Positions 38,473 through 58,346 of a DNA stretch of 64,000 nucleotides are shown piece after piece. Positions within the stretch are counted from its first letter, which is position 1. Every line of letters starts with the position of its first letter. Origin of the DNA: Poseidonia sp. (GTDB lineage: Archaea; Thermoplasmatota; Poseidoniia; Poseidoniales; Poseidoniaceae); contig JAKMEE010000039.1 of assembly GCA_022426155.1 (NCBI GenBank), positions 24,516 through 88,515 on the forward strand, read 5' to 3'. Below the pieces are notes generated by a model, which was given only the letters and a program-made list of their open reading frames with translations, was not told the DNA's origin and did not search any database. Position numbers and translations under genes: made by a program.

Positions 38473-39096
38473 TCACATGATTTGAGCAAAGGGCTCGAAC
38501 ATCAGAATGAATGCCAAGGGGATCAGGAGCATTGTGGCGTTGTCATCGATGTAGGTCAATCGAGGCCATTCTGAAATCATTGCAATGGGTGCAAGAACAA
38601 AAGCCATCCACATGGGGGTGCCAAATTGCCAAGAGCAAAGAAGCCAAATAATGATCAAGAACCCTGTCGCAGCCATCATCACTTTACGGTCATTCCATCC
38701 TTTCCGTCGCATTTCTCCCATCAAAGGGTCACCCAGAGCCAGTGACAATACAAGTGGCCAAGCATAAGCTTCGTCTGGTACGAGGAGGAACACAAAACCC
38801 AAGCTTATTGAACCCCACATCAAGGCAGAAAGTTGAGTTGCTTCATAATCACGCTGACCAAAAATCGTGATGCCAAGTCGAAGGCGGATGGCTTCAGCAC
38901 ACAACAGGGCCAGCATCAATGCCGCCACCAATTGTGGAAGTGAGAGGGAGACAGCATCAGCAACGGCCTCACCGTGAGAAAAATATGCCCAGGGTACTAT
39001 GGCCATTCCGACGTGAATGGACCGGCGAAACACGTGTCCTCTCATTCCACCCACGGACAAATCCACAGGGTTCGTGAGTTCAACCTGAGCGCTCAT
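38473..39096 (-). CDS. polytopic membrane protein, CdsA/DUF46-like (possible CTP-dependent polyprenol/dolichol kinase or CDP-archaeol synthase), tentative
   Basis: 207 aa, ~6 TM helices, composition reminiscent of cytidylyltransferase-family membrane enzymes; no decisive motif. Confidence 0.3.
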   Translation of the reverse strand: MSAQVELTNPVDLSVGGMRGHVFRRSIHVGMAIVPWAYFSHGEAVADAVSLSLPQLVAALMLALLCAEAIRLRLGITIFGQRDYEATQLSALMWGSISLGFVFLLVPDEAYAWPLVLSLALGDPLMGEMRRKGWNDRKVMMAATGFLIIIWLLCSWQFGTPMWMAFVLAPIAMISEWPRLTYIDDNATMLLIPLAFILMFEPFAQIM

Positions 39097-40030
39097 GGTT
39101 CTCGCCTTTGAGCGTCATTAAAGCCTTCTCAATATCAAGTGTACCCTTTGCGAGGTCTTCCATCACACGATTGTACAGTGGGTGAGAGGTCAACCGCCGC
39201 TCATGTTGTGCCAGTAAACGTTCTCGCATGCGGGCGCGTTTGGCTCGTTGGGATGATGGGAGGTCATGGAGGAGGGAAGCTGCTGACTCAATTCCCTCAC
39301 CTGTTAGACCAGAAGTGAGCATAATTGGAGGAGCTTCTCCAGCGCCTAATCCAAACGATTCCTTGAGTTCAGATGCATGTTTTTCTGCTCCTTCAAGATC
39401 ACACTTGTTCACCAATATCGCATCGGCCAATTCCAATAACCCTGCCTTTTCGGCCTGAATTCCATCGCCCCGTGCAGGTCCTTCTACAACCACGATTCGG
39501 TCGGCTACCGCTGCGCACCTCAGTTCAGATTGACCTGCTCCAACGGTTTCAATCAGCACTCTATTCCAGCCGATGGCGACCAAAAATTTAGCCATGTCTT
39601 CAACGATTAGAGGTACACTCCCCGATGTTGCTCTGGTTGCAATTGAGCGTACATAGACGCGTTCTTTGATGGCCTCATCATCAACAGAGGTCATTCGTAC
39701 GCGGTCACCCAACAGCGCCCCACCGCTTCGAGGGGAACTTGGGTCAACAGCAAGGAGGGCTGTGTTGTGGCCTTGGTGAGCCCAACGAGACATCAGTGCG
39801 TCAACCAGGACAGATTTCCCAACGCCAGGAGCGCCTGTGATCGCCATTATGCTCCAACCATCAACCTCGCCAACAATTGGGCTCAGTGACTCAAGAGCCT
39901 GAGATAAGGATAGAGTCCCATTTTCTATAGAAGATAAGACTCGTGCAATTGAACGACGAGAGCCGTTGGATGCTGATTGAACTTCATCCGACAATCGAAC
40001 ACCTCTCATGCCTTTGATGTCCAATGCCAT
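39080..40030 (-). CDS. meaB: methylmalonyl-CoA mutase-associated GTPase MeaB/ArgK
   Basis: P-loop 'ITGAPGVGKSVLVDAL', 'DPSSPRSGGALLGDR', 'IETVGAGQSE' G-domain motifs. An alternative ATG at 40009 would give an ATGA overlap with the upstream mutase-subunit stop. Confidence 0.85.
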   Translation of the reverse strand: MALDIKGMRGVRLSDEVQSASNGSRRSIARVLSSIENGTLSLSQALESLSPIVGEVDGWSIMAITGAPGVGKSVLVDALMSRWAHQGHNTALLAVDPSSPRSGGALLGDRVRMTSVDDEAIKERVYVRSIATRATSGSVPLIVEDMAKFLVAIGWNRVLIETVGAGQSELRCAAVADRIVVVEGPARGDGIQAEKAGLLELADAILVNKCDLEGAEKHASELKESFGLGAGEAPPIMLTSGLTGEGIESAASLLHDLPSSQRAKRARMRERLLAQHERRLTSHPLYNRVMEDLAKGTLDIEKALMTLKGENHERSG

Positions 40031-43104: not shown

Positions 43105-46100
43105 ATGTCCAGTGTAAGCCAAGATACGAGTCAGAGTAAATCTGCATCATTTTCGATCGTCCTACTCATGCTCATTTCCGTTCTCTCAGCAGGATTATCA
43201 ACCGTTCAAGCGGTTGGGCCCAATCAAAACGATCTTGGTTCCGGGGGAGACCTGCCCGATAATACCACTGTGAACATCACGAATTACATTTTTTCAGGGA
43301 GTTATTCCGGGTCAGGTGAACTTGACTATGGAGACGATAACGATATCATACGAGTTGCTTTGAATGCAAATCAGGGTTTGTCAGCATCGCTTTCCTTCCC
43401 ATCCACCACGACATTTTCAAACGGGACAACCGTGATGAATGATTTTGATCTAATCTTCTACGATGCTAATCTCACCTACCTTGGCGAATCATGGATGAAC
43501 AACCCAGAAACGTTGACTACGAACAATACGCAACCACACGGCGGCATGGTGTACATTGACATATTTCGCTATGATGGGGCTGGAACTTGGAATCTAACTT
43601 TGAACAAATTCGCCGTCAGCAACGGTAGTACAGGTGGCAATGGAACAGGCGGTGGCGGCGGTAGTTCCGTCACCAATTGTTCAGGAAATGGAACAAATGC
43701 ACCAGACATCCTTGAACCAAACGACTCCATGACAGCAGCGACATCTGCTTCACTGCTTCCATTGTTTTGCTCAGGCCTTTCTATTGATTCTACCTCTGAC
43801 GAAGATTTCTATGAAATCGATATGATTTCAGGAGTTACTTACTATGTGAACTTGACCTTCACGCACTCCAACGGTGACATTGACGGGCAGTGGATGGACT
43901 CCAGCGGTACTTCTCTCGGCCTGTCTGGTTCGCTTGGTTCTGGAACTGATAATGAAGCTGCTTCATATACAGCAACATCGAATTTCACTTCCTACTTGAG
44001 GGTCTACTTCTACCAATTTAGCACATGGACATCGCCCGTCTATGACATTGAACTTTCAACCAATTTACCAGGTGGGGGACAAAGCATGGAATCGGTTTAT
44101 GTCAACATCGTGAATGATACCGATGCAATGCTGACCTTCTCAGGCTTAACCGCTGGTACAACCTACGGTTACAATCACACCTATGGTCAGGTTGACTTGA
44201 ATGAATCATGGACTTGGGCAACCTCGACGAATGGAACTTTCAATGCAACCAACACCACTCACACAATGAATATCTCCATACAGGCTGCACCTGCGGAAGG
44301 GGAACTGCTCGTGTTTGCCTCGCTTTTCGATGCAGTAGGTGTGACATTGGACACGGATTATGACGAACTTGAATTTGTCATGGTTGAAGGAAGTGTCACC
44401 TCCTCAACAACGGGAGAATATTTCTTGACCAACTTGTCAATTGGAACAGATTATGCAGTTGAGTGGATGGTATTAGATTATGTTCTTTTCATGAACAATG
44501 TCTCCTCTGGATCGAACGTCTCTGATGGGATTAATGCCTCGTTGGTTGATTCAAACCAAAGCAGTTTCACAGCAACGACATCTTCTGAATCCGTTCAAGT
44601 GACATGGACGGGTCCAACTACCCTGAACCAGCACTTATTTGTCGTTGCACTTCACCTTAACAATACTGTGATTGACTACGAAACCAGCGAAAATATCACC
44701 GGAGATTTCTTTGAAGATTTCTATCCCCAACTCCCTGCCCTTCTTATCAATGGATACTCAACAAGCGTAAATGCAACAACCAATTATGTTAGCGCAGAAG
44801 GCATGGATTTGGTTGTGGGTGATGATTACAAGTACCAATACAGAGTGACGGATAGTGGAAATGCCAATGTCGCAGTATCAAGCATGACGAGTTTCACAGC
44901 AAGCGCCCAAAACATGTCCATTTCCATGTTCAATTACACAACACCAACCTCGTCCGGCAACTACTGCTTGCACGTTGATTTGTACTCGGACGTGAACGTT
45001 CAGTTGATTGGAGACACGGTGTGTATTATGTTCACTTTTGATGATGATAATGACGGTGTTCAAAATGAGTACGATCTCTGCCCGAACACCGCATCAGGAG
45101 CCTTTGTTGATCTTGATGGATGTGCACTCTCGCAGAAGGACACGGACGGTGATGGATACAACGATGCTGTTGATGCCTTCCCGTACGATGCAACCCAATA
45201 TTCAGACATGGATGGAGATGGCTACGGAGATAACGCTACAGGAAATAATCCAGATGCTTTCCCAACTGATGCCACCCAATGGTCCGACGCTGACGGCGAT
45301 GGATACGGCGATAACGCAAGTGGAAATTCACCCGATGCTTTCCCATTCGACCCAACGCAATGGTCGGATACGGATGGCGATGGTTACGGTGACAATGCAT
45401 CAGGCAATTCACCCGATGCTTGGCCAGCGGATTCCACACAATGGGCTGACAGCGATGGCGATGGGTTCGGTGACAACCCCTCGGGAACCAACGGCGATGC
45501 CTTCCCAACTGATAGTACACAATGGGCAGATTCAGATGGTGACGGCTACGGTGATAATCCTGCAGGAACCACACCCGACGTCTTCCCGAACGATGCCACT
45601 CAATGGGAAGATGCAGACCAAGATGGTCATGGTGACAATCCATCTGGATACCTCGGCGACCATTTCCCCAATGACGCCTCCCAATGGTCTGATACTGACG
45701 GAGACGGTTACGGTGACAACCAAGCAGGCACAACTCCCGATGCCTTCCCAAGCGATAGCACACAATGGTCCGACAGTGACGGTGACGGCTATGGTGATAA
45801 CGCAGCTGGTATGAATCCTGACGCCTTCCCAACCGATGCTACACAATGGATGGATGAGGATAACGACGGTTTCGGTGACAACGCTAATGGCAACAATGGC
45901 GACCAATGTCTTGACACACCAAACGGCGAGATTGTTGATGAGAATGGTTGTTCTGCATCCCAACTCGATGAAGATCTGGATGGTGTTTCCGATGCCAATG
46001 ATGCCTGTCCTGGTACGCCTGCTGGAGAATCGGTTGATACTGTCGGCTGTTCAACCAGCCAAGAAGACAGTGACAATGATGGCGTGATGGATGCATTCGA

Positions 46101-47211
46101 TGCTTGTCCTAACACACCGCTAGGCTCAGATATCGATTCTGCAGGTTGCGCCGATTCCCAATTGGATTCGGATGGCGATAGCATCTCGGATGACATTGAT
46201 GATTGTCCCACCACTGCACCTGGTCAAATTGTGAACGGTGTGGGTTGTTCTGCCGATGAACGTGACTCAGATAATGATGGCATTGACGATGCGGCTGATG
46301 TCTGCGACTACACTCCGGCAGGAGAAAATGCAGATGACAAAGGTTGCTCCGATTCTCAGAAAGATGACGATGGAGACTTGGTTTACAATGACATAGATTC
46401 TTGCCCAGGAACACCCAACGAGGCTCTTGTTGATGCGATTGGTTGTGCCGACAGCCAACTCGATAACGATAACGATGGCATTTCCAATGCCGCAGATACA
46501 TGCCCTGTCACCCCAGCTGGGGAGCAAGTTGACCCAGATGGATGCTCCGATTCCCAGAAAGACGAAGACATGGATGATATTTGGAACAGTCAAGATCTCT
46601 GTCCAGATACTCCAGTCACACAAACAGTGGATTCGGATGGTTGCTCCGATCAGCAAAAAGACGATGACAACGATGGAATCAAGAACCATCTTGATGATTG
46701 CCCGAACACCTCCACAGACGAACTCATCGATGCTACTGGCTGTGCTTTGAGTCAATTAGACAGTGATGGAGACGGCGTCTCTGATGCGGAAGATGCATTC
46801 AAATTTGATGCCAATGAGACCGCTGACACTGATGGTGATGGAGTGGCTGACCGCTGGGATGCTTATCCAGCTGATGCAACTCGTTCTGCGGCAGATGTCG
46901 AAGATTCTGGAAACGCAATGCTCTACCTCATTGTGACAATCGTTCTGCTCGCTCTTACTGGTGGGGCTGGATTTGTGTTTATGCGAAAAGATACAGATGC
47001 AAACATTTCACCGTTCATGGAAGTGTCTACCAACGATGCTGCTACCGATCAAAACATGGGTGAGAACTTTTCAAAGGAATTACCAACTCTCCAGGGTGCT
47101 GGCCCCCAGCAATGGGAAGAAAATGGCGTCCATTGGAGTCGGGATACGAACGACCAATTGTCATACTATGACGGTTCAACCGCCACTTGGGTCGCTTACA
47201 AAAATGATTGA
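43105..47211 (+). CDS. giant surface protein (1368 aa): signal peptide, Ser/Thr/Asn-rich β-rich N-region, ~10 tandem 26-aa Ca-binding repeats, ~8 Cys-containing TSP3-like repeats, C-terminal TM anchor
   Basis: Signal 'IVLLMLISVLSAGLSTVQA'. Repeats 'DAFPTDATQWSDADGDGYGDNASGNSP' and 'DSDNDGVMDAFDACPNTPLGSDIDSAGC'. TM 'MLYLIVTIVLLALTGGAGFVF'. Confidence 0.85.
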   Translation: MSSVSQDTSQSKSASFSIVLLMLISVLSAGLSTVQAVGPNQNDLGSGGDLPDNTTVNITNYIFSGSYSGSGELDYGDDNDIIRVALNANQGLSASLSFPSTTTFSNGTTVMNDFDLIFYDANLTYLGESWMNNPETLTTNNTQPHGGMVYIDIFRYDGAGTWNLTLNKFAVSNGSTGGNGTGGGGGSSVTNCSGNGTNAPDILEPNDSMTAATSASLLPLFCSGLSIDSTSDEDFYEIDMISGVTYYVNLTFTHSNGDIDGQWMDSSGTSLGLSGSLGSGTDNEAASYTATSNFTSYLRVYFYQFSTWTSPVYDIELSTNLPGGGQSMESVYVNIVNDTDAMLTFSGLTAGTTYGYNHTYGQVDLNESWTWATSTNGTFNATNTTHTMNISIQAAPAEGELLVFASLFDAVGVTLDTDYDELEFVMVEGSVTSSTTGEYFLTNLSIGTDYAVEWMVLDYVLFMNNVSSGSNVSDGINASLVDSNQSSFTATTSSESVQVTWTGPTTLNQHLFVVALHLNNTVIDYETSENITGDFFEDFYPQLPALLINGYSTSVNATTNYVSAEGMDLVVGDDYKYQYRVTDSGNANVAVSSMTSFTASAQNMSISMFNYTTPTSSGNYCLHVDLYSDVNVQLIGDTVCIMFTFDDDNDGVQNEYDLCPNTASGAFVDLDGCALSQKDTDGDGYNDAVDAFPYDATQYSDMDGDGYGDNATGNNPDAFPTDATQWSDADGDGYGDNASGNSPDAFPFDPTQWSDTDGDGYGDNASGNSPDAWPADSTQWADSDGDGFGDNPSGTNGDAFPTDSTQWADSDGDGYGDNPAGTTPDVFPNDATQWEDADQDGHGDNPSGYLGDHFPNDASQWSDTDGDGYGDNQAGTTPDAFPSDSTQWSDSDGDGYGDNAAGMNPDAFPTDATQWMDEDNDGFGDNANGNNGDQCLDTPNGEIVDENGCSASQLDEDLDGVSDANDACPGTPAGESVDTVGCSTSQEDSDNDGVMDAFDACPNTPLGSDIDSAGCADSQLDSDGDSISDDIDDCPTTAPGQIVNGVGCSADERDSDNDGIDDAADVCDYTPAGENADDKGCSDSQKDDDGDLVYNDIDSCPGTPNEALVDAIGCADSQLDNDNDGISNAADTCPVTPAGEQVDPDGCSDSQKDEDMDDIWNSQDLCPDTPVTQTVDSDGCSDQQKDDDNDGIKNHLDDCPNTSTDELIDATGCALSQLDSDGDGVSDAEDAFKFDANETADTDGDGVADRWDAYPADATRSAADVEDSGNAMLYLIVTIVLLALTGGAGFVFMRKDTDANISPFMEVSTNDAATDQNMGENFSKELPTLQGAGPQQWEENGVHWSRDTNDQLSYYDGSTATWVAYKND
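45140..45905. repeat. ~10 tandem copies of a 78-nt coding repeat (26-aa DxDGDGYGDN…DAFPxDxTQW unit) inside the 1368-aa surface protein gene
   Basis: Visible periodicity of 'gatggcgatggttacggtgacaa…gatgctttcccaactgatgccacccaatgg' with synonymous drift. Confidence 0.7.
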
Positions 47212-50054
47212 AATCATTGTCTCATTGTGATTATACTCGATGCAAAATCGGGACCTTCTTAACAAGGTATGAAAAAGGGATTGGCGCAGCGTTAATCATG
47301 GCAAAGAAGCAAACTGCTTTGTTAATCCTCAGCATTTTACTTTTTTCATATCCCACATACGCTCATACAACCAAGGAATCGGCCGCCGTAGAGCAATTTG
47401 GTGTAGTCTTTACTGAATTTACCATCGCAGATTCAAACGATGCTCTTTCGGACCCCAGAGATCTTGAATTTCACCCTGGGCGAGCAGATGAATTGTGGGT
47501 GGCCAATCGTGCAACAGATAGTATCACCATTATTTCCAATACAGGCATGGACAATCAATCATCACAGAATCGTCAAGATTCTCACCGAAACCACTTCCTT
47601 GAAGAAGTGAGCGCTATCGCTTTTGGGGCTTATCACCCTGAATTTGACTGGCAGTGGGGGTCGGCCCAAGAAACTGCCAATACCTATTGTGGGCAGGCAT
47701 CGCCAAACAATTTCATGGGTCCAACCCTTTGGCCATCCTCACTCTCTCATTTTGCTATGGAAAATCAAAACAATGCGCTCCTTGGCAGCCACATCGATAT
47801 GAATCATGAATCTCCATACGGTGTTGGGATCGCCCATGATTCAGATAATGCGTATTGGTACAATGATGGATATTACGGAGAGCTTGTCTATTACGATTTC
47901 CAAGAAGACCATGATACCGGACAAGATGACCATTCAGACGCCATTGTTCGTAGGTATTCAGAGGTTCAACTATCACATCAACTGGGAGTTCCTGGGCACA
48001 TGACTCTCGATAAGGACAGTGGAATTCTCTACATTGCTGATTCTGGAGCAGACCGACTTCTCTGGGTGAACACGGATGATTCAACCACCAGTACAGTCAA
48101 CATTATGAACGACGCTTCTCGTTTGGAACCCTTGCAAGAATATTCCCGCATGTCAGGTATCGAATGGGGCGTTTTAGCCACAGGTCTGAACATACCATCC
48201 GGTATTGCACTTGAGGGAGATACGCTCTTTGTATCTGAAAATGGAAATGGGAAGATTGTCGCCTATGAATTAGGGTCAGATGGGAAATCAATCACCGAAT
48301 TGGATTCAATCCAAACAAGTGCTTCTTCCATCATGGGCTTAGAAATTGGCCCTTCAGGGAATCTCTACTACGTCGATAACGGGCAGGACGAAGTTGTTCG
48401 CATTGACCCATCTTTTGATGAAGACGGAGATGGAGTCGGTGACTCGGTTGACAATTGTCCGTTCATAGCGAATTCAGATCAAGCAGACCATGAGATGGAT
48501 GGTGTCGGTGATGCATGCGATACAGATGATGACAACGACGGTATTGATGACATCACAGATGAGTGTGCCCAAGGAAATTCCACATGGATTTCAACAACTC
48601 TCACCGATCATGATGCGGATGGATGTGCAGATTCTATAGAAGATTGGGACGATGATAATGATGATGTTCCTGATGTCTTTGACCTTTGTCCCACTGGGGA
48701 TGTGTCCTGGACCGCATCATCGACAACTGATTATGACGAAGATGGATGCCAGGATGCTGTAGAAGATTTTGATGATGATAACGACCGAATCTGTGATGCT
48801 ACTCAGTCGAGCAGTGAATGGGCCTGCTCGATATCTTCTGCAGGACAGGATCTTTGCCCCACCAGCCCTCCCTCTTTCATGTCTTACATTGGAAATGATG
48901 TGGACCAGGATGGATGCGAAGATATCGGGGAAGACGACGATGATGACAATGACGGATTCAAGGACGATCTCGACACCTGCCCTCGAGCCTTTGGAACGAG
49001 TTTCCGTGGTGAACGATTGGGTTGCGATGATTTTGATGGTGACGGTTTTGCAGATACCATCGATGAATTTCCAACTGAATCAAGCCAATGGTCCGATGCT
49101 GATGAAGATGGGTTTGGTGATAATGCAAGCGGTGTCGAAGCCGATCAATGCACATCACTACCAGGAAGCTCGTATGAGGATCGTTTAGGCTGTCCTGACT
49201 CCGATGGTGACGGATGGTCGACTGCCGATGAGGATTGGACTGTCCAAGACGGTGCAGACGCATTCCCTCTGATTGCGAGTCAATATCTGGACCAAGATAA
49301 CGATAGTTTTGGCGATTCACTCGATGGATACCAAGGGGACGCTTGTCCAATTGATGAAGGATATTCATACGCGGACCGCTTTGGTTGTGTAGATTCTGAT
49401 GGGGATGGTTGGTCAGATTTGAACGATGCTTTCTCAGAGGATGCAACTCAACATTCGGATAGAGATTCAGACGGTTACGGAGATTCACCAGATGGTAATT
49501 CTACAGATTATTGCCCCGATGTATTTGGGTTATCCTCTATTGAACGCCTTGGGTGCCCTGATTCTGATGGCGATGGATGGGACAATTTCCTTGACAAATA
49601 CCCTGAAGATTCTCGTTTGTGGTCAGATGGTGATGAAGATGGATACGCTGACCAAGAAGGAACAAATCTCTCCGACGATTGCCCCAATGTTGCTGGGACT
49701 TCAAAGAAGGACCGTCTCGGTTGCTTGGACGATGATGGTGACGGTTGGTCGAATAAAGGCGATACCTTCCCCGCAGATATTAGTCGATATGAGGAGAGTC
49801 AAGGACTCAGTTCACTTCGTGTAATCATAACAATCAGCGCCTTGGTATTGATTGGTTCCCTGATAGTTGCTTTGCTCTTATTCCAAAGGAAAAAGCAAGC
49901 CCAAGTTAAGCAACCCATGCCATTCCATATTCCCAGTCCCGGACTCCCAATGACACCATCGTCCGGCCCCCCATTACCTCCTGAGGGTCTGCCTCCAGGT
50001 TGGACTCAGGAACAATGGGCATGGTACGGAGAAAATTATCTCAAACAACGTTGA
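47208..50054 (+). CDS. surface protein (948 aa): signal peptide, NHL-like β-propeller, TSP3-like Ca-binding repeats, C-terminal TM anchor and Pro-rich cytoplasmic tail
   Basis: ATGA overlap with the upstream gene. 'LYIADSGADRLLWVN', 'GIALEGDTLFVSENGNGKIVAY' and 'LYYVDNGQDEVVRI' propeller blades. 'DSDGDGWSD' repeats. TM 'VIITISALVLIGSLIVALLLF'. Confidence 0.8.
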   Translation: MKSLSHCDYTRCKIGTFLTRYEKGIGAALIMAKKQTALLILSILLFSYPTYAHTTKESAAVEQFGVVFTEFTIADSNDALSDPRDLEFHPGRADELWVANRATDSITIISNTGMDNQSSQNRQDSHRNHFLEEVSAIAFGAYHPEFDWQWGSAQETANTYCGQASPNNFMGPTLWPSSLSHFAMENQNNALLGSHIDMNHESPYGVGIAHDSDNAYWYNDGYYGELVYYDFQEDHDTGQDDHSDAIVRRYSEVQLSHQLGVPGHMTLDKDSGILYIADSGADRLLWVNTDDSTTSTVNIMNDASRLEPLQEYSRMSGIEWGVLATGLNIPSGIALEGDTLFVSENGNGKIVAYELGSDGKSITELDSIQTSASSIMGLEIGPSGNLYYVDNGQDEVVRIDPSFDEDGDGVGDSVDNCPFIANSDQADHEMDGVGDACDTDDDNDGIDDITDECAQGNSTWISTTLTDHDADGCADSIEDWDDDNDDVPDVFDLCPTGDVSWTASSTTDYDEDGCQDAVEDFDDDNDRICDATQSSSEWACSISSAGQDLCPTSPPSFMSYIGNDVDQDGCEDIGEDDDDDNDGFKDDLDTCPRAFGTSFRGERLGCDDFDGDGFADTIDEFPTESSQWSDADEDGFGDNASGVEADQCTSLPGSSYEDRLGCPDSDGDGWSTADEDWTVQDGADAFPLIASQYLDQDNDSFGDSLDGYQGDACPIDEGYSYADRFGCVDSDGDGWSDLNDAFSEDATQHSDRDSDGYGDSPDGNSTDYCPDVFGLSSIERLGCPDSDGDGWDNFLDKYPEDSRLWSDGDEDGYADQEGTNLSDDCPNVAGTSKKDRLGCLDDDGDGWSNKGDTFPADISRYEESQGLSSLRVIITISALVLIGSLIVALLLFQRKKQAQVKQPMPFHIPSPGLPMTPSSGPPLPPEGLPPGWTQEQWAWYGENYLKQR

Positions 50055-51369: not shown

Positions 51370-52245
51370 TCAATCAAATCGTTGAAGTTGCATCAATTCA
51401 TCGGTACTCAAGGTGTCACCCGACAACAATTTCGCCATGAGGTCTTGAGTTTCGTTTGATGCTGTTGGACGCTGTCCTTCACCTGCACTTGCTCCTCGCA
51501 TTGCACGAAGAATGTCTTGGGTAGAATGGAGGCAGCGGAGAGATACGATGTACAAGCTGTGTTCTTTGTCAGCCTCTTTCTTAGAGTGACGGAGTTTTCG
51601 GTGAGATGCCTCTGCTTTCTCGCGTTGACGTTCAACTTCTGAATTCCATTCGATCATTAAATCGTGGGCACTCTGTGCAGCATCTGCGGCTTCCTTGACT
51701 GCGTTGTGGGCAGCTTCTTGTGTGGCAGCAGCAACCCGGAGAGATTCATTGCCCTCAGTTTCACCACTATCGGTCTGTAATTCCTTGAGTTTCTTTCGCT
51801 TGGAACTCAATTCCTTCATTTTCTTAAAATATTTCACTTCGTTCTTACCTTGATGTTTGCCTTGTTCAAATTCCCGTTCCAAGCGTTCCATGGTGCGAGT
51901 AAGTGATTGGACAGTATCGGGGCGAATCGGACGGCCACGCTTATCAAATTCTTGTGGGCGGTCTGGTTGAGTTCCTCGAATGGCCTCTTTTGCCTCACGT
52001 ACAGCTTGATTAGCACCATCTCGTTCTTTCTTTTTCATGCGAACCATTTCGTTCATTTGGTCGCGTAATTCACGTTGTTCTTTCACTTGAACAATGAGTT
52101 CACGTACTTCGTTATTGAGTTCGTTTCGGGTGGTAGTGAATTCTTTGGTCTTCTCATTCCAATCATCTCGAACTTCGCGGTGAAGGGTTGCTTTCTTGTC
52201 AACCATTTTTCGTCGTTCTTCAAGAAGATTTTTGAGTTCTGCCAT
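51370..52245 (-). CDS. coiled-coil protein (291 aa), paralogue of the 60656..61657 gene
   Basis: Heptad-rich K/E/R sequence; shared block 'ERLEREFEQ…KYFKKMKEL…KKLKELQ' versus 'EIKNLEERFQ…KETMERIKRMKRRVEELE' in the paralogue. Confidence 0.5.
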   Translation of the reverse strand: MAELKNLLEERRKMVDKKATLHREVRDDWNEKTKEFTTTRNELNNEVRELIVQVKEQRELRDQMNEMVRMKKKERDGANQAVREAKEAIRGTQPDRPQEFDKRGRPIRPDTVQSLTRTMERLEREFEQGKHQGKNEVKYFKKMKELSSKRKKLKELQTDSGETEGNESLRVAAATQEAAHNAVKEAADAAQSAHDLMIEWNSEVERQREKAEASHRKLRHSKKEADKEHSLYIVSLRCLHSTQDILRAMRGASAGEGQRPTASNETQDLMAKLLSGDTLSTDELMQLQRFD

Positions 52246-52341: not shown

Positions 52342-52710
52342 TTAGTTGGACCGTTCCATGTTGTGGAGGTTCTGCACACACTCGTCCAATGCTTGACGAA
52401 TGTGCCCTAGGTTCGCTCTAGCGCTGCAATGAACGAGGAAATGCAATCGTTTTCCTCGCTGAAGAATAATTGTTCCACCTTCCATGACTAAGGTGATTCG
52501 TTCTTCACCGTCCATTTCCTTTAGGGCCTGAACCCACCGTTGCATCTGGGGGGTTTCATTTGTTTGATCTTCTGAACTTCGGAACACGACAAAGCCATCG
52601 GGTTCAAACAGCGTGGTCGATTGAACCCCTTCTACTTGGGTCACAGGTGACACCAAGCGTTCTAACATGATACCAATGGGAGGCCGAAAGCGAATAATGC
52701 TTCTTCTCAT
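52342..52710 (-). CDS. Roadblock/LC7 (MglB-like) domain protein
   Basis: 'LERLVSPVTQVEGVQSTTLFEPDGFVV' and a C-terminal αβ pattern typical of Roadblock/LC7; ATGA overlap with the upstream GNAT gene. Confidence 0.6.
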   Translation of the reverse strand: MRRSIIRFRPPIGIMLERLVSPVTQVEGVQSTTLFEPDGFVVFRSSEDQTNETPQMQRWVQALKEMDGEERITLVMEGGTIILQRGKRLHFLVHCSARANLGHIRQALDECVQNLHNMERSN

Positions 52711-53186
52711 GGATTGAGCGGACCACGCATCATGTATCCCAGTCCACTTTGGTAATATCCAACCAATTCCTGACGAACAGTTAACCCTCGAAGTTTGTAA
52801 AATCGCTGGGCTCCAGTATTGTTGGCTTTGACTTCGAGTTGTACTTCATGATATCCAGATTCTGATGCTATTTGACGAAAGCGTTCCCATGCAATGTTGC
52901 CAAGCCCCTTGCTTTGATGTGTTTCACAAATCACAAAGGCAGCAACTCGAACAATGGTGTCTTTGAAAGGTGTGGCCCAAAGTACCCCTTGAATTGGTTG
53001 GGGAGAGGGTTGGTCCAGATCGATAAGGATCAAATTCGCATCCCAGGCAGGGATGGGGAGGTGTCGTATTGATACATCAGAATAGATCTCACCTGTTTCA
53101 GCCAGGAACAGTTCAATGATTTGGGTTGCTCCATCTTCAGTCAGTCGTTTCGGTTCAGGTCCCGGGACCCATTCAAGACGAGGCAT
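52707..53186 (-). CDS. GNAT-family N-acetyltransferase
   Basis: 'VAAFVICETHQSKGLGNIAWERF' (Q/RxxGxG/A acetyl-CoA motif) and 'NTGAQRFYKLRGL' motif B. Confidence 0.7.
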   Translation of the reverse strand: MPRLEWVPGPEPKRLTEDGATQIIELFLAETGEIYSDVSIRHLPIPAWDANLILIDLDQPSPQPIQGVLWATPFKDTIVRVAAFVICETHQSKGLGNIAWERFRQIASESGYHEVQLEVKANNTGAQRFYKLRGLTVRQELVGYYQSGLGYMMRGPLNP

Positions 53187-53189
53187 TGT

Positions 53190-55211
53190 TCATTCCTTCC
53201 TTGAACGGCGACTGCTTCCTTTGGCAGTTCCACGGCGAACGTTCGTATTGCGTTTTTTACGCTTTTTCCCCGAACGCTCTTCAATTTTAACTTCTTTTTC
53301 AAGATTCATTCCTAGGAGGCCGCCATTGTTCAGCAAGGCATTGAGTTCTTCCATAGAGACCGATTCACCCGTTGACATCTTCTGCTTTACCATGCTTGCA
53401 TCAGGTCCCTTTGATTTTCTTTTGGCCTGTTTTGCCCGTGGCTTATTGGGCCGACTGCCTCCATCCTTGATTCGGATGAAGGCTTCGATGCGTCCCCGTT
53501 CCCTTCGAAGGGTTCTGCGGCGTTTGATTAGCCGTTTCATGGAATTGCTGTTTTTACGATTCATGCGATTCAATTGCTTGACTTCCTTGTGGAGGTCTGC
53601 ATCAATTTGCTTTGAAGTCAAGTATGTTTGATGAGCTTTTAATGCTGAAGGTTGCATGGCTTTGAGTTCAAAAAATGAGCCGAACAATTCGCGTTCACGA
53701 TTCAAATTATGGACGTTCATGACATCCAATTCCTCAGTAATGCGTTCAAAGATGGTTCTCATTTGATGTTGAATACGGGAATGTGAAAGGATGTTGATTT
53801 CATTGATTTCGTCGACTTTGTTACGCATGGCCGTAAATTCTGAAACACTGTTTTCAAATCTCTCCTTGATTTCCACATAGTCAGGAATCGTGATGTCAGG
53901 TTTGGTTCTTTCTTGACGAAGGCCAAATTTAACCAATTTTGCCAATTCTGTGCGTCGTTGTTTAGCTTCCGTATGTTCGACATCAACTTTGACTAATTCT
54001 GATTCGATCTCAGTCATTTGGTTTCTTAACACTTCCATACTCAATGTTCGAAGGTCTGCAAAGAGGTCAAAGCGTTCAAATCGGGTTGTTTGAGGGCCAA
54101 TTGGTTCGCATACCTGCTCCCAAGACAGTCCTTGTGATAGGAGTTTCTGGGCCCGATAAATCTCCTCTCGGATGTCGAAGTACCCTTCAGGCCTCAAAAC
54201 GCGGCTGAGATCGTGACTGTGTTGAAATGGGTCTTCGATTGGCATTGAATGGTCGCCGAGTCGTTGATTCAATTCTTCTGGGACCATGTCCCAAGCGATA
54301 GGTTCTCCATGCGGCCATCGTTTGATTTCACGGCCAATGTACCCTCCATGCTTTACTGAACACACTCCCTCATCAAAGGACCAATCATTGGCAAGGTGGT
54401 CAAAGATCCCTAACACGGCTTCTGCCAATGTCATCGATGGATTGGCGGGAACAAATGTTTGGCCTTTTTTGAATCCAACATTGTAACTCTGATCAAGTTG
54501 GATGATGGATTTAGGTGCATTTTCTTGAAGATTTAACAAGGCAATGTTTGGGTTTGCTTGGAGGATTGCCAACGCTATGAGTGTCCATGCGTACGAGGAG
54601 AGCGTCCCGTTGGGTGCTTCATTGATGCTCCTGGATGAAGCCCAATGTTTGACAGCAAGGACGGTCTCCTTCACCAAAGGATGTAACTCAGCATATTCTT
54701 TAATCAAATCAGTGTTGTAAATTGCCAACTCATTGTTCACTGAGATATCAATGGGCAATCCCGATGGTCCGTCTTTGAATTTGACGATTGGAACCTTGGC
54801 TCGGCCGATGACTTCGATGTCTTTCATCCCCATTTGCTTCAAGACATTTCGAATTTTGTTGAGGAGGCGTCGAGGGGATTGTTGCTTGACCACGATGCAA
54901 AGGTCGAGGTCTCCAGCGCCCAAGGATGTCCCAGATTCCGTTGAACCGAAAGCATGCAATTGGCTTCCTTCAAACTCAAATTCAATACGTTTCTTGAGTT
55001 GTCGGAAGACAGCCTTTCGATGTGTCAATTCCTCAGAACTCATGGTCGCCTGTTGAAGACTGGCCTGAATTTCTGTTCCGAGACGCGGCAAATCTGGGTG
55101 GTTGAGAGCATGCAATGTGTCAACCTCTTGAGTGAGCAAAGCATGAAGGTGAGACCACCTCTCTTGTTGATCTTTTGAGAATCCAGAGACTGGGCAAATT
55201 TCCTCTGTCAT
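53190..55211 (-). CDS. Cid1/Gld2/TUTase-family (eukaryote-type noncanonical poly(A) polymerase-like) nucleotidyltransferase with PAP/OAS1-associated domain, coiled-coil region and Lys/Arg-rich C-terminal tail
   Basis: 'HAFGSTESGTSLGAGDLDLCIV' (Pol-β GS…DxD), 'AKVPIVKF', 'DISVNNELAIYNTDLIKEY', and 'VKHWASSRSINEAPNGTLSSYAWTLIALAILQ', which mirrors the Cid1 'KRWAKRRQIN…GTLSSY…LQ' PAP-associated motif. C-terminal 300 aa are coiled-coil and K/R-rich. Confidence 0.75.
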   Translation of the reverse strand: MTEEICPVSGFSKDQQERWSHLHALLTQEVDTLHALNHPDLPRLGTEIQASLQQATMSSEELTHRKAVFRQLKKRIEFEFEGSQLHAFGSTESGTSLGAGDLDLCIVVKQQSPRRLLNKIRNVLKQMGMKDIEVIGRAKVPIVKFKDGPSGLPIDISVNNELAIYNTDLIKEYAELHPLVKETVLAVKHWASSRSINEAPNGTLSSYAWTLIALAILQANPNIALLNLQENAPKSIIQLDQSYNVGFKKGQTFVPANPSMTLAEAVLGIFDHLANDWSFDEGVCSVKHGGYIGREIKRWPHGEPIAWDMVPEELNQRLGDHSMPIEDPFQHSHDLSRVLRPEGYFDIREEIYRAQKLLSQGLSWEQVCEPIGPQTTRFERFDLFADLRTLSMEVLRNQMTEIESELVKVDVEHTEAKQRRTELAKLVKFGLRQERTKPDITIPDYVEIKERFENSVSEFTAMRNKVDEINEINILSHSRIQHQMRTIFERITEELDVMNVHNLNRERELFGSFFELKAMQPSALKAHQTYLTSKQIDADLHKEVKQLNRMNRKNSNSMKRLIKRRRTLRRERGRIEAFIRIKDGGSRPNKPRAKQAKRKSKGPDASMVKQKMSTGESVSMEELNALLNNGGLLGMNLEKEVKIEERSGKKRKKRNTNVRRGTAKGSSRRSRKE

Positions 55212-55711
55212 GATTTTGCCTCCTTTTCTTTCCTCTTGACTGCATAACTGGAGGGTCCACCCGACTCAACACGTTGGGCATCAGTCAGCAAGTTATCCCA
55301 GCCTTTTTCCAAGATGTTCTCCCAATATTCAATCGCTCGCTGGCAATCATTGAGTGCAAAAGTGAGGCGCTTGGTTCTCGAATCCGCTCTTCGGCGAAAC
55401 AATTCATTTTCGAGGTAGGCATTCTCTGCTTGTTGTGATTCTGCAATGAATGACTCTCTTGAATCAATGAGCGATTGATGTTCTTCAGAGCCTGATTTGA
55501 CCTTAAGCAGTTGGTCATCAAATGCTACAATTTTGTCTTGGAGAGCCTCTCTTCGCTCCTTTGCATCCTTGGCCAAAGGTTCTGCAACCTGGAGTTCCTC
55601 CCCGCGAGATTCAAGTTGCTTGGGAATCATCATAGCAAGGCGTTCCCTTCGATGAATAATGGCCCGAATCATAAATTCGGGGGTCACCTCAAGCAACGCT
55701 TCATCCTTCAT
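55208..55711 (-). CDS. α-helical hypothetical protein (167 aa), first gene of the nucleotidyltransferase operon
   Basis: ATG at 55711 (the track begins at TTG 55732); stop overlaps the NTase start (ATGA). Confidence 0.45.
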   Translation of the reverse strand: MKDEALLEVTPEFMIRAIIHRRERLAMMIPKQLESRGEELQVAEPLAKDAKERREALQDKIVAFDDQLLKVKSGSEEHQSLIDSRESFIAESQQAENAYLENELFRRRADSRTKRLTFALNDCQRAIEYWENILEKGWDNLLTDAQRVESGGPSSYAVKRKEKEAKS

Positions 55712-55802
55712 GCAACACGGGCTACGGTTCAAGGTTGAATAAAGAATCCCTTTCTCTTCTTGAAGGCGAGAATGTCAAGAACCCCTGCGTTGAGCGGTCC
55801 CC

Positions 55803-58346
55803 ATGGGCGGACAGCGCTTTGGAAGATGGAGCTCCAAAGGGGCGCTTCTTGCCGCATTGATGCTCTGTTCCCTTTTCCCAACAGTTTCCGCAGCAGGGGG
55901 CGGCGCAGTCATTGATGTAAGTTCATTTTCACTTGAGAATTTTGAAACCATAGAATCAGCAGATTACACACTTGAATTCAACTTGACCGAAGTCGATAAT
56001 AGCGAAGCAGATATTGACGTCATGGTGACGCTTTCTTCCCTTGATGGGACTGTTTTTGACACATTGTACCAGAACCTTACGATCGGGCCACTCAACAATC
56101 AAAGCATGTCGTTCAACCTCAGTGCCTTACCTTTTGGCTATACCGTTGTGAATGCAACCCTTTCGGGTGATACTGGTTTAGCCAGTGCGGGTCAATCAAC
56201 AACAATTGAACGAACCATTCAACGCTTGCGACCTCTGGCCATTGCTTTGGGGAGCCAAAGCAGTTTGTTGCTTCAGGGGATTAATCAAGCAGGTGAAACG
56301 ACTGGCAACACGACATTGCATGATGGAGATAGACTTGAACTTCAAATTCCAGTCATCAACGACGGCGACATCAACTGGACAGGAAACGTCCATTTCTCAG
56401 TTGAGAACGGAGTATCTCAGTCTTTGATTGAGCTCGAAAATGTGTCGGTTCCTGCTATGTCTTCAACGCAAGTTTTCTTTGAAGATTCAAGTCTTATCTT
56501 GGAAGAAGGCGTGCTAAATTGGTCGGTGAGTCTCTCAGGCATCCTGAATAACGACTCGTTCAATCAAACACGTCAAGGGCAAGAGTCAGTTTTGCCCCCA
56601 CCTCTCCCCGTGATGATGGGCATTCTTACTAGCAATGCTGAATTCATTCGTTCTGGTGAAATACTCAACATCTCTTTGATGATTAACAACACGGGCCTCA
56701 TTGATTTCGATGGTGCCTTTGAATGCACATTAGATGGGGACCTCATCGCAACTCAAGAAGTGTTGATCAACGCCTCATCCTCGAAAACATTGAATTTCTC
56801 AACAACTGCAAAACCTGCTATTCTCATCTGTGATTCGAGAAATGTACGTGTTGATTCTTCCTCAAATTTCCCTCTGCAGGCCCTCATCGAGATGGATTCA
56901 GCAATGTTTGAATCAGCGGGATCTTCCTCGCCTACGTTGTTGGGTGGGCCGTGGCACAAAGGCGACGAAATTCACGCAACAATGTTGATTCGAAATACGG
57001 GGGACCTCTCGGGGCGCACAAGGTTGGTGCTTGAACAAGGAGCATTTTTCTCTTCAGGTGAATGGGTGACATTAGAGGCTGGGCAGGCTGGGGAAGTAAC
57101 ATCATCCTTGGCTATGTTTGACGAGGGAGCCTTAGATCTCAATTGGACCCTTGAGAGTGACGATGGTGTGGTGCAGGTCCCTTCTTCGGGCCAGGTATCC
57201 ATTCCTGTACAGCAACAGCAATCCATTGAGATTGAGTTGGATGAAATGATTTGGACTTCTCATGAAGGTGTGTCATTCACCATGCGTCTCTCTCTTGACG
57301 AAGGAAAATCACGTCCAGTCTTCCTCCAACTTGGATATGAAACCTCAGATACAACGTTCTATTTGCAGGAATATGAAATTCTTCTTGAAGAAGGACAACG
57401 AGAGCAGCATATTTCATTCGGTCAAATTTCTGCTGAAAAAGTGGTGCTCAAAGTGACACCTGTGGGTTGGTCAGCAGGGCCAGGGGCGCTTTCCACGAGC
57501 CTTTCAATACCCGATGAACGAACTCTGTATTGGGTGACCTTCAATCCAGTCACATCCCCGATACGTCCAATTGTTGGTGATTCTGCAGCAGTAACGCTCA
57601 TCATGCATCAATCTGGGCCAGTTTCTCAATCGATTGGAGAACTCCAACTCACCGATGAACAAGGTGTCATTTTGGGACAGACCGAAACTGAATCTTGGAC
57701 TTTGGACGGAGATGAAACCATCACGTTGAACGTGGTTTGGCCAGAAGGAACGAACGTGATATTGAGAGCTGTATGGGCGATTGATGGGCAAGTGATCACG
57801 GAGCAATCTTCCTTCGTTTCTGGCGAACCTCTCGAGCAAACATCTGCAAATATCCCGTATGCAGCGATGATGTGGGGTGGTCTCCTAGGTGGTGTCCTGG
57901 TACTCGTGCTTCGATTACGGGAGCAACGAAAAGTGGGGGGTGGTGCCTCTATCCCAACCAAGAAAGAGACGGTCAAACCCTCCTCCACTACCACTCAAAA
58001 ATCATCTCTTTCAAGTGAGAAGAAAGAAGTCCAATGTCCAGAATGCGAGCGTTTGTTGAGGGTTCCAATCAACTACTCTGGCACAGTTGGTTGCCCAGAT
58101 TGCACAACCAAATTCGATGTTCAAATAGAATCTGTTGAGCAGATGCCCGTTCAAAAGATCGATGATCCGGCCGATGAAGTTGAGGTTGTACCACCAAAAC
58201 CATCATCGCGAGAAGCACGTGGTGGAAAGATTGAGATCCATTGTCCAGATTGTGCTCAAAGCCTTCGTATTCCTGCTTCCTATGAGGGCTCAGTTCGTTG
58301 CCCAGCATGCACAACAGTCTTCAAAGCAGATGAAGGCGTGAGTTGA
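55803..58346 (+). CDS. large surface protein (847 aa): signal peptide, β-rich extracellular region, TM, and a cytoplasmic tail with two tandem zinc-ribbon motifs
   Basis: Signal 'ALLAALMLCSLFPTVSAAG'. TM 'MMWGGLLGGVLVLVLRL'. Tail 'CPECERLLRVPINYSGTVGCPDCTTKF' and 'CPDCAQSLRIPASYEGSVRCPACTTVF'. Confidence 0.75.
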   Translation: MGGQRFGRWSSKGALLAALMLCSLFPTVSAAGGGAVIDVSSFSLENFETIESADYTLEFNLTEVDNSEADIDVMVTLSSLDGTVFDTLYQNLTIGPLNNQSMSFNLSALPFGYTVVNATLSGDTGLASAGQSTTIERTIQRLRPLAIALGSQSSLLLQGINQAGETTGNTTLHDGDRLELQIPVINDGDINWTGNVHFSVENGVSQSLIELENVSVPAMSSTQVFFEDSSLILEEGVLNWSVSLSGILNNDSFNQTRQGQESVLPPPLPVMMGILTSNAEFIRSGEILNISLMINNTGLIDFDGAFECTLDGDLIATQEVLINASSSKTLNFSTTAKPAILICDSRNVRVDSSSNFPLQALIEMDSAMFESAGSSSPTLLGGPWHKGDEIHATMLIRNTGDLSGRTRLVLEQGAFFSSGEWVTLEAGQAGEVTSSLAMFDEGALDLNWTLESDDGVVQVPSSGQVSIPVQQQQSIEIELDEMIWTSHEGVSFTMRLSLDEGKSRPVFLQLGYETSDTTFYLQEYEILLEEGQREQHISFGQISAEKVVLKVTPVGWSAGPGALSTSLSIPDERTLYWVTFNPVTSPIRPIVGDSAAVTLIMHQSGPVSQSIGELQLTDEQGVILGQTETESWTLDGDETITLNVVWPEGTNVILRAVWAIDGQVITEQSSFVSGEPLEQTSANIPYAAMMWGGLLGGVLVLVLRLREQRKVGGGASIPTKKETVKPSSTTTQKSSLSSEKKEVQCPECERLLRVPINYSGTVGCPDCTTKFDVQIESVEQMPVQKIDDPADEVEVVPPKPSSREARGGKIEIHCPDCAQSLRIPASYEGSVRCPACTTVFKADEGVS

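Follow-up and report, generated by a model that had tools for sequence, protein, structure and literature searches.

What is a nucleotidyltransferase of the eukaryotic Cid1 type doing in a marine archaeon, and do the genes packed around it belong with it? The question is raised by a stretch of 64,000 nucleotides from Poseidonia sp. (assembly GCA_022426155.1, contig JAKMEE010000039.1), hereafter the window, by whose positions all features are numbered. Between 55711 and 52342, the list of open reading frames (ORFs) contains four close-packed ORFs on the minus strand, and the second and longest of them encodes the nucleotidyltransferase (NTase) in question. An initial annotation, made from the sequence alone, had described this locus as a Cid1/Gld2-family enzyme in a four-gene operon; its ORF positions, including that of the 673-residue NTase, agree with ours in all four cases. 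The operon is read from gene 1, at the high coordinates, to gene 4, at the low ones:

55208 to 55711, minus strand: gene 1, helical/coiled-coil protein, 167 residues from the ATG at 55711
53190 to 55211, minus strand: gene 2, the NTase, 673 residues
52707 to 53186, minus strand: gene 3, GNAT acetyltransferase, 159 residues
52342 to 52710, minus strand: gene 4, Roadblock/LC7 protein (MglB/LAMTOR-like), 122 residues from the first ATG or 108 residues from the ATG at 52668

Family assignment, fold and an intact active site together show that the first ~375 residues of the NTase form a Cid1/URT1-type terminal nucleotidyltransferase. The protein scores above the Pfam cutoffs for PF22600 (MTPAP-like_central, 102 bits) and PF01909 (NTP_transf_2, 31.7 bits), and the terminal uridylyltransferase (TUTase) domain gives 27.5 bits. 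The score for PF03828 (PAP_assoc, the poly(A) polymerase-associated domain) is 20.5 bits, just below the cutoff of 22.6, while the homologues P0091 and P0030 reach 48 bits. In a phmmer search of PDB, the best match was URT1 (E=9e-40, residues 48-373), followed by TUT4 (3e-37), TUT7 (1e-34) and Cid1 (5e-29); GLD-2 (3e-25) and CutA (6e-24) scored lower, and Trf4 and TUT1 were far weaker. The alignments to URT1 and Cid1 extend through residues 359-373. An AlphaFold model built from 63 homologues has a mean predicted local distance difference test (pLDDT) score of 81, mostly above 85 in the catalytic half, and Foldseek places it on URT1 with E=8e-21, a target-normalised template-modelling (TM) score of 0.90 and a root-mean-square deviation of 2.5 Å, covering the whole URT1 chain. 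Cid1 comes next (TM 0.87-0.89), and then TUT7, CutA and GLD-2. Both the Pfam profiles and the structure thus bear out, far beyond chance, the proposed membership in the Cid1/Gld2 family with a PAP-associated domain.

The catalytic signature F88-G89-S90-x10-D101-L-D103-L, together with D155, is invariant in 63 sequences of the archaeal family, as are N160, N166, K188, S205-S206-Y207, E326-D327-P328-F329 and H333. The motifs AKVPIVKF, DISVNNELAIYNTDLIKEY and KHWASSRSIN...GTLSSY, which had been listed as the family signature, were all found in the protein; the spacing in the first of the signature elements has to be corrected, as ten residues, and not nine, separate G89-S90 from D101. Placement among minimal NTases or CCA-adding enzymes, named beforehand as the outcome that would speak against the assignment, was obtained with neither profiles nor the predicted structure. 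The NTase scores 16.1 bits against the NCBIfam model of MntA (cutoff 60), with no HEPN protein nearby, and CCA-adding enzymes are absent among its significant PDB matches. The same holds for OAS, cGAS and cGAS/DncV-like nucleotidyltransferases (CD-NTases), both in phmmer and in Foldseek.

Which nucleotide would such an enzyme add? The nucleotide-recognition loop of the NTase, IEDPFQHSH(333)D, aligns with IEDPFEISH(336)N of Cid1 and IEDPFETSHD of URT1, so that H333 corresponds to H336 of Cid1. This histidine confers UTP selectivity on Cid1, and its mutation broadens the enzyme to ATP (PMC4931116, PMC3950679); conversely, a histidine inserted into GLD-2 turns it into a U-adding enzyme (PMC4931116, PMC3950679). 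In the A-adding members of the family, the histidine is missing or replaced (PMC4931116). In addition, the best-scoring relatives, URT1, TUT4, TUT7 and Cid1, add U without exception; lower scores go to GLD-2, CutA and Trf4. Since H333 occupies the position of the histidine that makes Cid1 selective for UTP, we predict from its sequence that the NTase is an active RNA 3' uridylyltransferase. The initial annotation had left the choice between poly(A) polymerases and uridylyltransferases open; the family stands, and the histidine favours U-addition over A-addition.

The region that makes the NTase recognisable covers about half of the protein, and the remainder is specific to the archaeal family. 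Its segments are as follows:

55077 to 55211, minus strand: NTase residues 1-45, family-specific N-terminal extension (alignment of 63 sequences)
54087 to 55076, minus strand: NTase residues 46-375, Cid1/URT1-type palm and PAP-associated (PAP/OAS1 substrate-binding) domain (Pfam, phmmer, Foldseek)
53460 to 54086, minus strand: NTase residues 376-584, long helical coiled coil (AlphaFold, pLDDT ~80-91)
53190 to 53459, minus strand: NTase residues 585-673 and the stop codon, two disordered Lys/Arg-rich segments flanking a helical motif (AlphaFold, counts of lysine and arginine)

Residues 1-45 lie outside the alignments with URT1 and Cid1. They carry the motif C6-x2-T-G-x-S-x2-Q-Q-x-R-W-P (residues 6-20, positions 55152-55196), which is nearly invariant in the archaeal family and absent from both eukaryotic enzymes. 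Within the catalytic part, a 13-residue insertion precedes EDPF in the loop equivalent to the beta-trapdoor of Cid1, where the model is of low confidence. The C-terminal half (~300 residues) is conserved within the archaeal family, and searches of Pfam, NCBIfam and PDB with it returned nothing significant. In the model, its coiled-coil helices span residues 392-430, 443-472, 477-492 and 504-582, with E506, F513, E515, L516, R570, E571, G573 and R574 conserved. They are followed by the disordered segments 585-604 and 636-673 (pLDDT below 50 for 585-601 and 636-673), of which the former has lysine or arginine at 8 of 20 positions and the latter contains 16 such residues in the last 38 of the protein. 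Between them lies a small conserved helical motif, SGESVSMEELNALLNNGG (residues 605-635), with conserved G615, S619, L626, L627, G630 and G631. The model and the residue counts agree with the ~300-residue coiled coil and Lys/Arg-rich tail described initially.

Similarity of the C-terminal half to the coiled-coil proteins encoded on either side was considered and rejected: a homologous relationship to the downstream DUF7121 protein or to gene 1 gave E=0.09 in BLASTP and probabilities of 7% and 3% in hhalign. A short motif, S-G-[DE]-[ST]-[LV]-S-x-x-[DE]-L-x-x-L, is nevertheless common to residues 614-627 of the NTase (53331-53372) and residues 274-287 of the DUF7121 protein (51385-51426); the hhalign match spans no more than 26 columns (E=0.005). 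Either a docking peptide used by both proteins or mere chance could account for it.

Set against its characterised relatives, the archaeal NTase is closest to URT1 (PDB 7xs4, 6l3f), the top match by sequence and by structure, with ~29% identity in the structural alignment. The two share the catalytic triad, the nucleotide-recognition loop EDPF-x2-S-H-D and the two-domain architecture of palm and PAP-associated domain. However, the eukaryotic URT1 has an N-terminal region that is long and disordered, whereas the archaeal NTase has a conserved N-terminal motif of 45 residues, the 13-residue insertion before EDPF and a 300-residue coiled-coil C-terminus with basic tails, and is encoded in an operon. 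In the poly(U) polymerase Cid1 of S. pombe (PDB 4fh3, 4e7x, 4nkt; E=5e-29, TM 0.87-0.89), the residues D103, D160, N165, N171, F332 and H336, whose roles have been described (PMC3950679, PMC4931116), all have invariant counterparts in the archaeal family. Unlike the archaeal protein, Cid1 is essentially a bare catalytic module and has an asparagine, not an aspartate, after the histidine, while its beta-trapdoor corresponds to a longer, poorly modelled loop in the NTase. TUT4/TUT7 and GLD-2 (TENT2) belong to the same family and have the same fold, and the archaeal NTase, like them, probably relies on appended or partner domains for the choice of substrate. Still, TUT4/7 have additional CCHC zinc knuckles and an inactive second NTase module, the selectivity histidine is missing from GLD-2, and neither has the coiled-coil C-terminus or partners of the GNAT and Roadblock types. 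Among archaeal enzymes, the class I CCA-adding enzymes also combine a Pol-beta core with a PAP/OAS1-like domain (PMC2794190, PMC11646218), whereas the archaeal exosome is a phosphorolytic complex with a fold unrelated to that of the NTase.

How did the gene come to be there? We scanned one genome per GTDB species and found the NTase in 115 species-level genomes; 80 loci were retrieved, and all counts of synteny and spacing given below refer to these. Almost all of them are labelled Poseidoniaceae or Poseidoniales, among them the 2-Mb chromosome of Marine Group II (MGII) CM001443.1, available since 2012, whereas one is labelled Thalassarchaeaceae and two bear bacterial names. The latter two, L025 (CAXQWT010000045.1) and L057 (CALDQY010000113.1), are filed under metagenome-assembled genomes of Salipiger bermudensis and a Rhodobiaceae bacterium; since their operons are 83-96% identical to loci of Poseidoniaceae, the contigs are archaeal and were misbinned. 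Among 5.8 billion clustered proteins, 187 full-length relatives were found; wherever a source is named, it is Candidatus Poseidonia, Poseidoniaceae or unclassified marine Euryarchaeota. Sequences of the family have been in the databases since 2012 under generic names, some labelled 'DNA polymerase sigma' by JGI. In several long-read assemblies (L084 and the protein clusters P0128/P0129; contigs of 0.1-2 Mb), the genes for the NTase, DUF7121 and PurP are split, which looks like frameshift errors rather than pseudogenes.

An exhaustive HMMER search with residues 1-380 against 1.84 billion representative sequences gave ~14 archaeal clusters with scores of 192-862 bits, the named members being all Poseidoniales or marine Euryarchaeota, and the next score was 157 bits. 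We looked up the 20 next-best hits, and all those with a name come from eukaryotes of widely differing groups: chytrids, Basidiobolus, Amoebozoa, an ancyromonad, Pharyngomonas, Cyanophora, a haptophyte and plant URT1. Their identity to the NTase is 33-38%, barely under the 35-40% found within the archaeal family. In a neighbour-joining distance tree, the archaeal NTases form one clade with no eukaryote inside; this tree is too crude for naming the donor lineage, and the sister pair it shows, Pharyngomonas and Cyanophora, is not to be trusted. The GC content of the gene, both overall and at third codon positions (GC3), matches that of the host. A viral origin or viral carriage was considered as well and rejected, with no structural match in BFVD at E<=0.001 and no relative in IMG/VR. 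These searches show that the family is confined to Poseidoniales, almost entirely to Poseidoniaceae, and that its nearest relatives are eukaryotic. The Cid1/TUT family is, to our knowledge, universal in eukaryotes; as its archaeal branch is restricted to one order, a single old transfer from a eukaryote to an ancestor of Poseidoniales, with the gene kept since as a core gene, is the most likely origin.

We then turn to the partners. The helical protein of gene 1 is refined here from the initial description: it is helical, as stated, and belongs with DUF7121. The protein encoded just downstream of the operon, at 51370-52245, is a clear DUF7121 member (PF23435, 51 bits at a cutoff of 29). The form of gene 1 found in the window has no Pfam match to DUF7121, being shortened, but a 268-residue homologue scores 31.5 bits against the cutoff of 29, and precomputed Pfam annotation assigns DUF7121 to orthologues of 272-274 residues in L081-L083 and L085. 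The profile of the gene 1 family matches DUF7121 in hhalign with a probability of 92% and E=6e-7, a value to be read with caution as these are coiled-coil sequences. Judged by these comparisons, gene 1 is a shortened, divergent DUF7121 paralogue with a Lys-rich C-terminus. It has 167-174 residues here and in the Poseidonia alphae group, as opposed to ~270-290 in most Poseidoniaceae, and the ~100 residues that are missing come from the central coiled-coil part. DUF7121 presumably corresponds to COG1340. All that has been said of COG1340 is that it comprises highly conserved coiled-coil proteins of archaea, of unknown function (PMC1322226).

For gene 3, the identification as a GNAT acetyltransferase holds, with 36.8 bits for PF00583 (Acetyltransf_1; cutoff 20.7) and the sequence Q-S-K-G-L-G that fits the acetyl-CoA motif Q/R-x-x-G-x-G/A. 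Its closest solved relative is the N-terminal acetyltransferase Ard1 of Thermoplasma (4pv6, E=1.2e-6), and it is not a RimI equivalog, with 34.7 bits against TIGR01575 (cutoff 86.4). Gene 4 required more evidence. It stays below the Pfam cutoff for Robl_LC7 (13.3 bits versus 23), and 16 of 23 family members give weak hits only, the best with E=5e-4. A profile of the 23 orthologues, on the other hand, matches the Asgard Roadblock protein 7f8m over its full length (E=1.7e-4). The AlphaFold model, based on database homologues, has a pLDDT of 82 and the topology alpha-beta-beta-alpha-beta-beta-beta-alpha, and the top 50 Foldseek matches in PDB are all Roadblock, LAMTOR (MP1-p14) or MglB proteins with TM 0.7-0.78; several family members have been named Roadblock/LC7/MglB by JGI. 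As the Pfam score is below the cutoff, the membership of gene 4 in the Roadblock/LC7 family, which had been proposed at the outset, rests on the fold and the profile match to PDB. Its fold is that of MglB, LAMTOR2/3 and the Asgard Roadblock protein; for the known members, the partners are small GTPases (MglA, Rag) or dynein.

The junctions between the four genes are tight. Direct reading of the sequence gives a true ATGA overlap between gene 1 and the NTase gene and a 3-nt gap, TGA-aca-ATG, between the NTase and GNAT genes, preceded by a purine-rich stretch; both agree with the initial annotation. A second ATGA overlap, between the GNAT and Roadblock genes, had also been noted, and it exists if the first ATG of gene 4 is the start. 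For a database protein of identical sequence (P0372, Candidatus Poseidonia sp.), the annotated start is M15, at ATG 52668, 42 nt downstream, and with this start the overlap becomes a 38-nt gap. Gene 1 has an alternative start as well, the TTG at 55732, which yields the longest ORF and a protein of 174 residues. Upstream of gene 1, a TATA-like TTTATT (55743..55738, minus strand) lies ~29 nt 5' of the ATG at 55711; given the usual distance from TATA to start in archaea, it could be the promoter of a leaderless or near-leaderless transcript.

These distances are conserved. In all sufficiently long loci, the gene order is IdeR (minus), the gene of an 847-residue protein (minus), the DUF7121 paralogue, NTase, GNAT, Roadblock, DUF7121 and PurP, and divergent lineages show the same order, on contigs of 66 kb and 952 kb. 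Of the 80 loci, 76 have the GNAT gene and 75 the helical gene, and a Roadblock-family ORF is found in 71 of the 71 loci that have both flanks, so that conservation of the four-gene neighbourhood in relatives, one of the checks proposed beforehand, was observed. Spacing along the operon is as follows:

helical gene to NTase gene: median -4 nt, with an overlap in 62 of 75 loci
NTase gene to GNAT gene: median 5 nt
GNAT gene to Roadblock gene: median 29 nt
Roadblock gene to DUF7121 gene: median 139 nt (96 nt in the window)

In 17 loci from one Poseidoniaceae group, a KaiC/RecA-like gene on the opposite strand is inserted between the Roadblock and DUF7121 genes, which makes this junction a real boundary; the downstream DUF7121 gene is therefore probably a separate unit. 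The inserted gene encodes a 241-residue ATPase with the P-loop GPPGSMKSS (L057, 7711-8436, minus strand; also, among others, in L013, L017, L019, L025 and L038). An RNA gene was considered as an explanation of the long spacer and rejected, as Rfam gave no hit and the spacer holds this opposite-strand ORF. As the entire region from IdeR to PurP is syntenic, the case for linkage of the four genes rests on their tight internal spacing and overlaps and not on synteny. The four genes form a conserved and probably co-translated unit, which has been kept while the identity of the NTase fell to 31%, and the conserved 4-nt overlap is the strongest argument for a partnership of the DUF7121 paralogue with the NTase. 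A search for Poseidoniales lacking the NTase, made with the GNAT protein of L064 (the most divergent locus, the one labelled Thalassarchaeaceae), returned only NTase-carrying lineages with the same arrangement, and one frameshifted long-read contig.

The genes of the region evolve at different rates, as seen from the identities of the window proteins to their counterparts in the nearest genus-level relatives (L001-L007):

PurP: 94%
downstream DUF7121 protein: 86%
IdeR: 63%
GNAT: 60%
helical protein (gene 1): 58%
Roadblock: 50%
NTase: 44% (52% in the catalytic half)
847-residue membrane protein: 44%
948-residue secreted protein with thrombospondin type-3 (TSP3) repeats: 35%

The NTase has diverged as much as the surface proteins encoded nearby, with every catalytic residue fixed. 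Such fast evolution would fit a genetic conflict, for example with viruses or mobile elements; against a role in conflict stand the fixed position of the gene in the core genome and the absence of matches to defence models in PADLOC. Assignment to a defence system was tried and rejected, the only PADLOC result being a weak hit to the shared NTase core.

Taken together, we favour, with some confidence but well short of certainty, the reading that the NTase is an intact member of the Cid1/URT1/TUT4-7 group, derived from eukaryotes and kept as a core gene, that it adds U-tails to RNA, and that the products of the operon are its likeliest partners. Within this reading, we infer U-addition, RNA as the substrate, the formation of a complex and the cellular role. 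Several observations weigh against it. The position after the selectivity histidine is an aspartate, D334, where Cid1 has asparagine, even if URT1 shares the H-D pair; Cid1 itself accepts ATP in vitro (PMC3950679), and the choice of nucleotide is thus not certain from sequence. At 44% identity, the NTase is far less conserved than DUF7121 and PurP (86-94%), which misfits a simple housekeeping role. The GNAT protein could be a housekeeping enzyme, Ard1 being a general N-terminal acetyltransferase, and no small GTPase, the usual partner of Roadblock proteins, is encoded in the conserved cluster or in the surrounding 28 kb, where the sole GTPase is the metabolic MeaB (39080-40030). Finally, given the synteny of the whole region from IdeR to PurP, co-occurrence is weak evidence that the GNAT and Roadblock proteins act together with the NTase.

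The last points lead to the most serious competitor, in which the NTase is a real tailing enzyme and the four genes are merely co-transcribed and otherwise unrelated: the GNAT protein would be the general N-terminal acetyltransferase of the lineage, the Roadblock protein would act elsewhere, and the NTase gene would simply have been inserted between them. Archaeal operons are often mixed in function, and we know of no system that combines NTase, GNAT and Roadblock families; PADLOC finds none here, the GNAT protein is nearest to Thermoplasma Ard1, and the gene order is shared far past the four genes, reaching from IdeR and the 847-residue protein to DUF7121 and PurP. On the other hand, the GNAT protein is not a RimI equivalog, all four genes evolve faster than the flanking DUF7121 and PurP, and a 4-nt overlap and gaps of 5 nt and 29 nt inside the cluster, compared to 139 nt or an inserted gene at its border, have persisted despite NTase identities as low as 31%. 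We consider such an accidental assembly of genes quite possible, if less than probable. The single functional module predicted initially accordingly keeps the support of conserved tight spacing and overlaps, while synteny alone is no proof of it. The enzyme could also differ in what it adds. It might be a non-canonical poly(A) or mixed-tail polymerase whose tails, A-rich or heteropolymeric, would replace or complement those of the archaeal exosome: the NTase is matched by family members that add A (GLD-2, Trf4) as well as by one that adds C and U (CutA), Cid1 takes ATP in vitro (PMC3950679), and the residue after the histidine is not the asparagine described as conserved (PMC4931116). We find this unlikely, as the UTP-selective histidine is invariant in 63 sequences and is lacking or replaced in A-adding members (PMC4931116), the top matches by sequence and structure are all U-adding, and URT1, a proven uridylyltransferase, has the identical H-D pair.

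An enzyme acting on something other than an RNA end is less likely by far. In the manner of OAS, cGAS and CD-NTases, or of minimal NTases, the protein might make a second messenger or nucleotidylate a protein or small molecule, and the operon would then serve signalling or defence. OAS and cGAS do share the Pol-beta core and the PAP/OAS1 substrate-binding domain, residues 52-130 give a weak PADLOC hit (20 bits) to a cyclase of the cyclic oligonucleotide-based antiphage signalling system (CBASS), and the NTase evolves fast, like many conflict genes. Yet sequence and structure (E ~1e-40, TM 0.90) group it with URT1 and Cid1 rather than OAS, cGAS or CD-NTases. The MntA model yields 16 bits where the cutoff is 60, genes for an effector, a HEPN protein or a sensor are absent from the cluster, and in every genome the NTase gene has a fixed core-genome position and is not part of a variable island. 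The suggestion of nucleotide signalling, raised as an alternative in the initial annotation, thus found no support in matches or in effector genes. Contamination by eukaryotic DNA, or a chimeric assembly, would explain why all nearest relatives outside the archaeal family are eukaryotic, but we give this practically no weight: the gene has no introns, shares 4 nt with a neighbour of archaeal type, has PurP and DUF7121 genes, both archaeal, on its flank and matches its host in GC and GC3, and the identical arrangement recurs at 80 loci that are independent of one another and stem from many studies, some of them on contigs of 0.95-2 Mb. The initial annotation had named contamination of the contig as a circumstance that would overturn it; the contig is archaeal, being gene-dense and carrying archaeal PurP and DUF7121, and its locus recurs in 115 species-level Poseidoniales genomes, megabase contigs included.

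How might a uridylyltransferase of this kind operate in Poseidonia? In the favoured reading, the triad D101/D103/D155 would carry out two-metal catalysis of nucleotide transfer, N160 and N166 would position the 3' end of RNA and the ribose, and the nucleotide-recognition loop, through F329 and H333, would clamp UTP and keep ATP out. In Cid1, roles have been described for D103, N165 and F332, the counterparts of D103, N160 and F329 of the NTase (PMC4931116, PMC3950679). The ~200-residue coiled coil and the Lys/Arg-rich tails would probably provide RNA binding and attachment of partners, with the basic tails holding the RNA. Catalytic cores of the Cid1 family are generally poor at choosing substrates and depend on appended domains or partners. 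Among known examples, Lin28A drives TUT7 and Gld3 stimulates Gld2. Here the DUF7121 paralogue, translationally coupled to the NTase by the 4-nt overlap, may be a coiled-coil partner, and the coiled coils and the Roadblock protein together may assemble the enzyme or determine its location; Roadblock proteins serve as dimeric platforms in MglA-MglB and Ragulator, solved complexes that match the gene 4 model. The GNAT protein could tune the system, either by acetylating and so neutralising lysines of the tails or by acetylating the N-termini of partners. The U-tail might then recruit decay enzymes or U-binding archaeal Sm-like proteins.

The surroundings of the operon are those of an ordinary archaeal genome. 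Two features adjoin it:

51370 to 52245, minus strand: DUF7121 coiled-coil protein, 291 residues (Pfam PF23435)
55712 to 55802, no strand: divergent intergenic region between the operon and the plus-strand gene of the 847-residue protein (sequence reading)

The rest of the window encodes archaeal housekeeping proteins (PurP, asparagine synthase, carboxyltransferase, MeaB, a B12-binding domain, SOR/SNZ), an IdeR-type repressor, large secreted TSP3-repeat proteins and one tRNA. The 847-residue protein (55803-58346, plus strand) has a signal peptide, a membrane anchor and two C-terminal zinc-ribbon motifs (CPxC...CPxC), and its divergently transcribed gene adjoins the operon in 71 of 80 loci. Two genes at 43105-47211 and 47208-50054 (plus strand), overlapping by 4 nt, encode highly acidic secreted or membrane proteins of 1368 and 948 residues, both with thrombospondin type-3 calcium-binding repeats; the 948-residue protein is among the fastest-evolving of the region (35-44% identity to relatives).

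What, then, is new? The known addition of nucleotides to RNA 3' ends in archaea is the work of the exosome, through heteropolymeric tailing, and of class I CCA-adding enzymes. In the full-text literature, including genomics and transcriptomics of MGII and with subscription journals partly covered, we found no description of a Cid1-type enzyme in archaea, in line with the initial view that it lies outside the known archaeal RNA toolkit. Reviews and classifications treat TUTases, together with the non-canonical poly(A) polymerases, as eukaryotic (PMC11646218, PMC7988573, PMC2794190). The family itself is known; new are the domain of life in which it occurs, its domain architecture and its operon context. 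If true, the transfer would be a rare functional case of RNA-processing machinery passing from a eukaryote to an archaeon, a direction that is rarely documented. The protein would also offer a compact scaffold for a poly(U) polymerase, thermally ordinary and equipped with a predicted RNA-binding tail of its own, which may be of biotechnological interest.

Poseidoniaceae (Marine Group II) are uncultured and are among the most abundant archaea of the surface ocean. The NTase can nevertheless be tested without culture, with recombinant protein and existing marine metatranscriptomes. The finding is relevant both to the field of RNA tailing and to archaeal RNA biology, and it raises the questions of what reads the U-tail (Sm-like proteins, RNase R or the exosome), how a eukaryotic enzyme was wired to archaeal partners, and what role DUF7121/COG1340 has. 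As a tentative wider picture, more speculative than the reading of the enzyme itself, Poseidoniaceae may run eukaryote-like RNA uridylation, in which an acquired TUTase works in a complex with DUF7121 adaptors, a Roadblock dimer and an acetyltransferase and tails selected or foreign RNAs. If the NTase is active, RNA uridylation exists in archaea, and if the wider picture is true, Poseidoniaceae would have the first RNA uridylation system that belongs neither to eukaryotes nor to their organelles.

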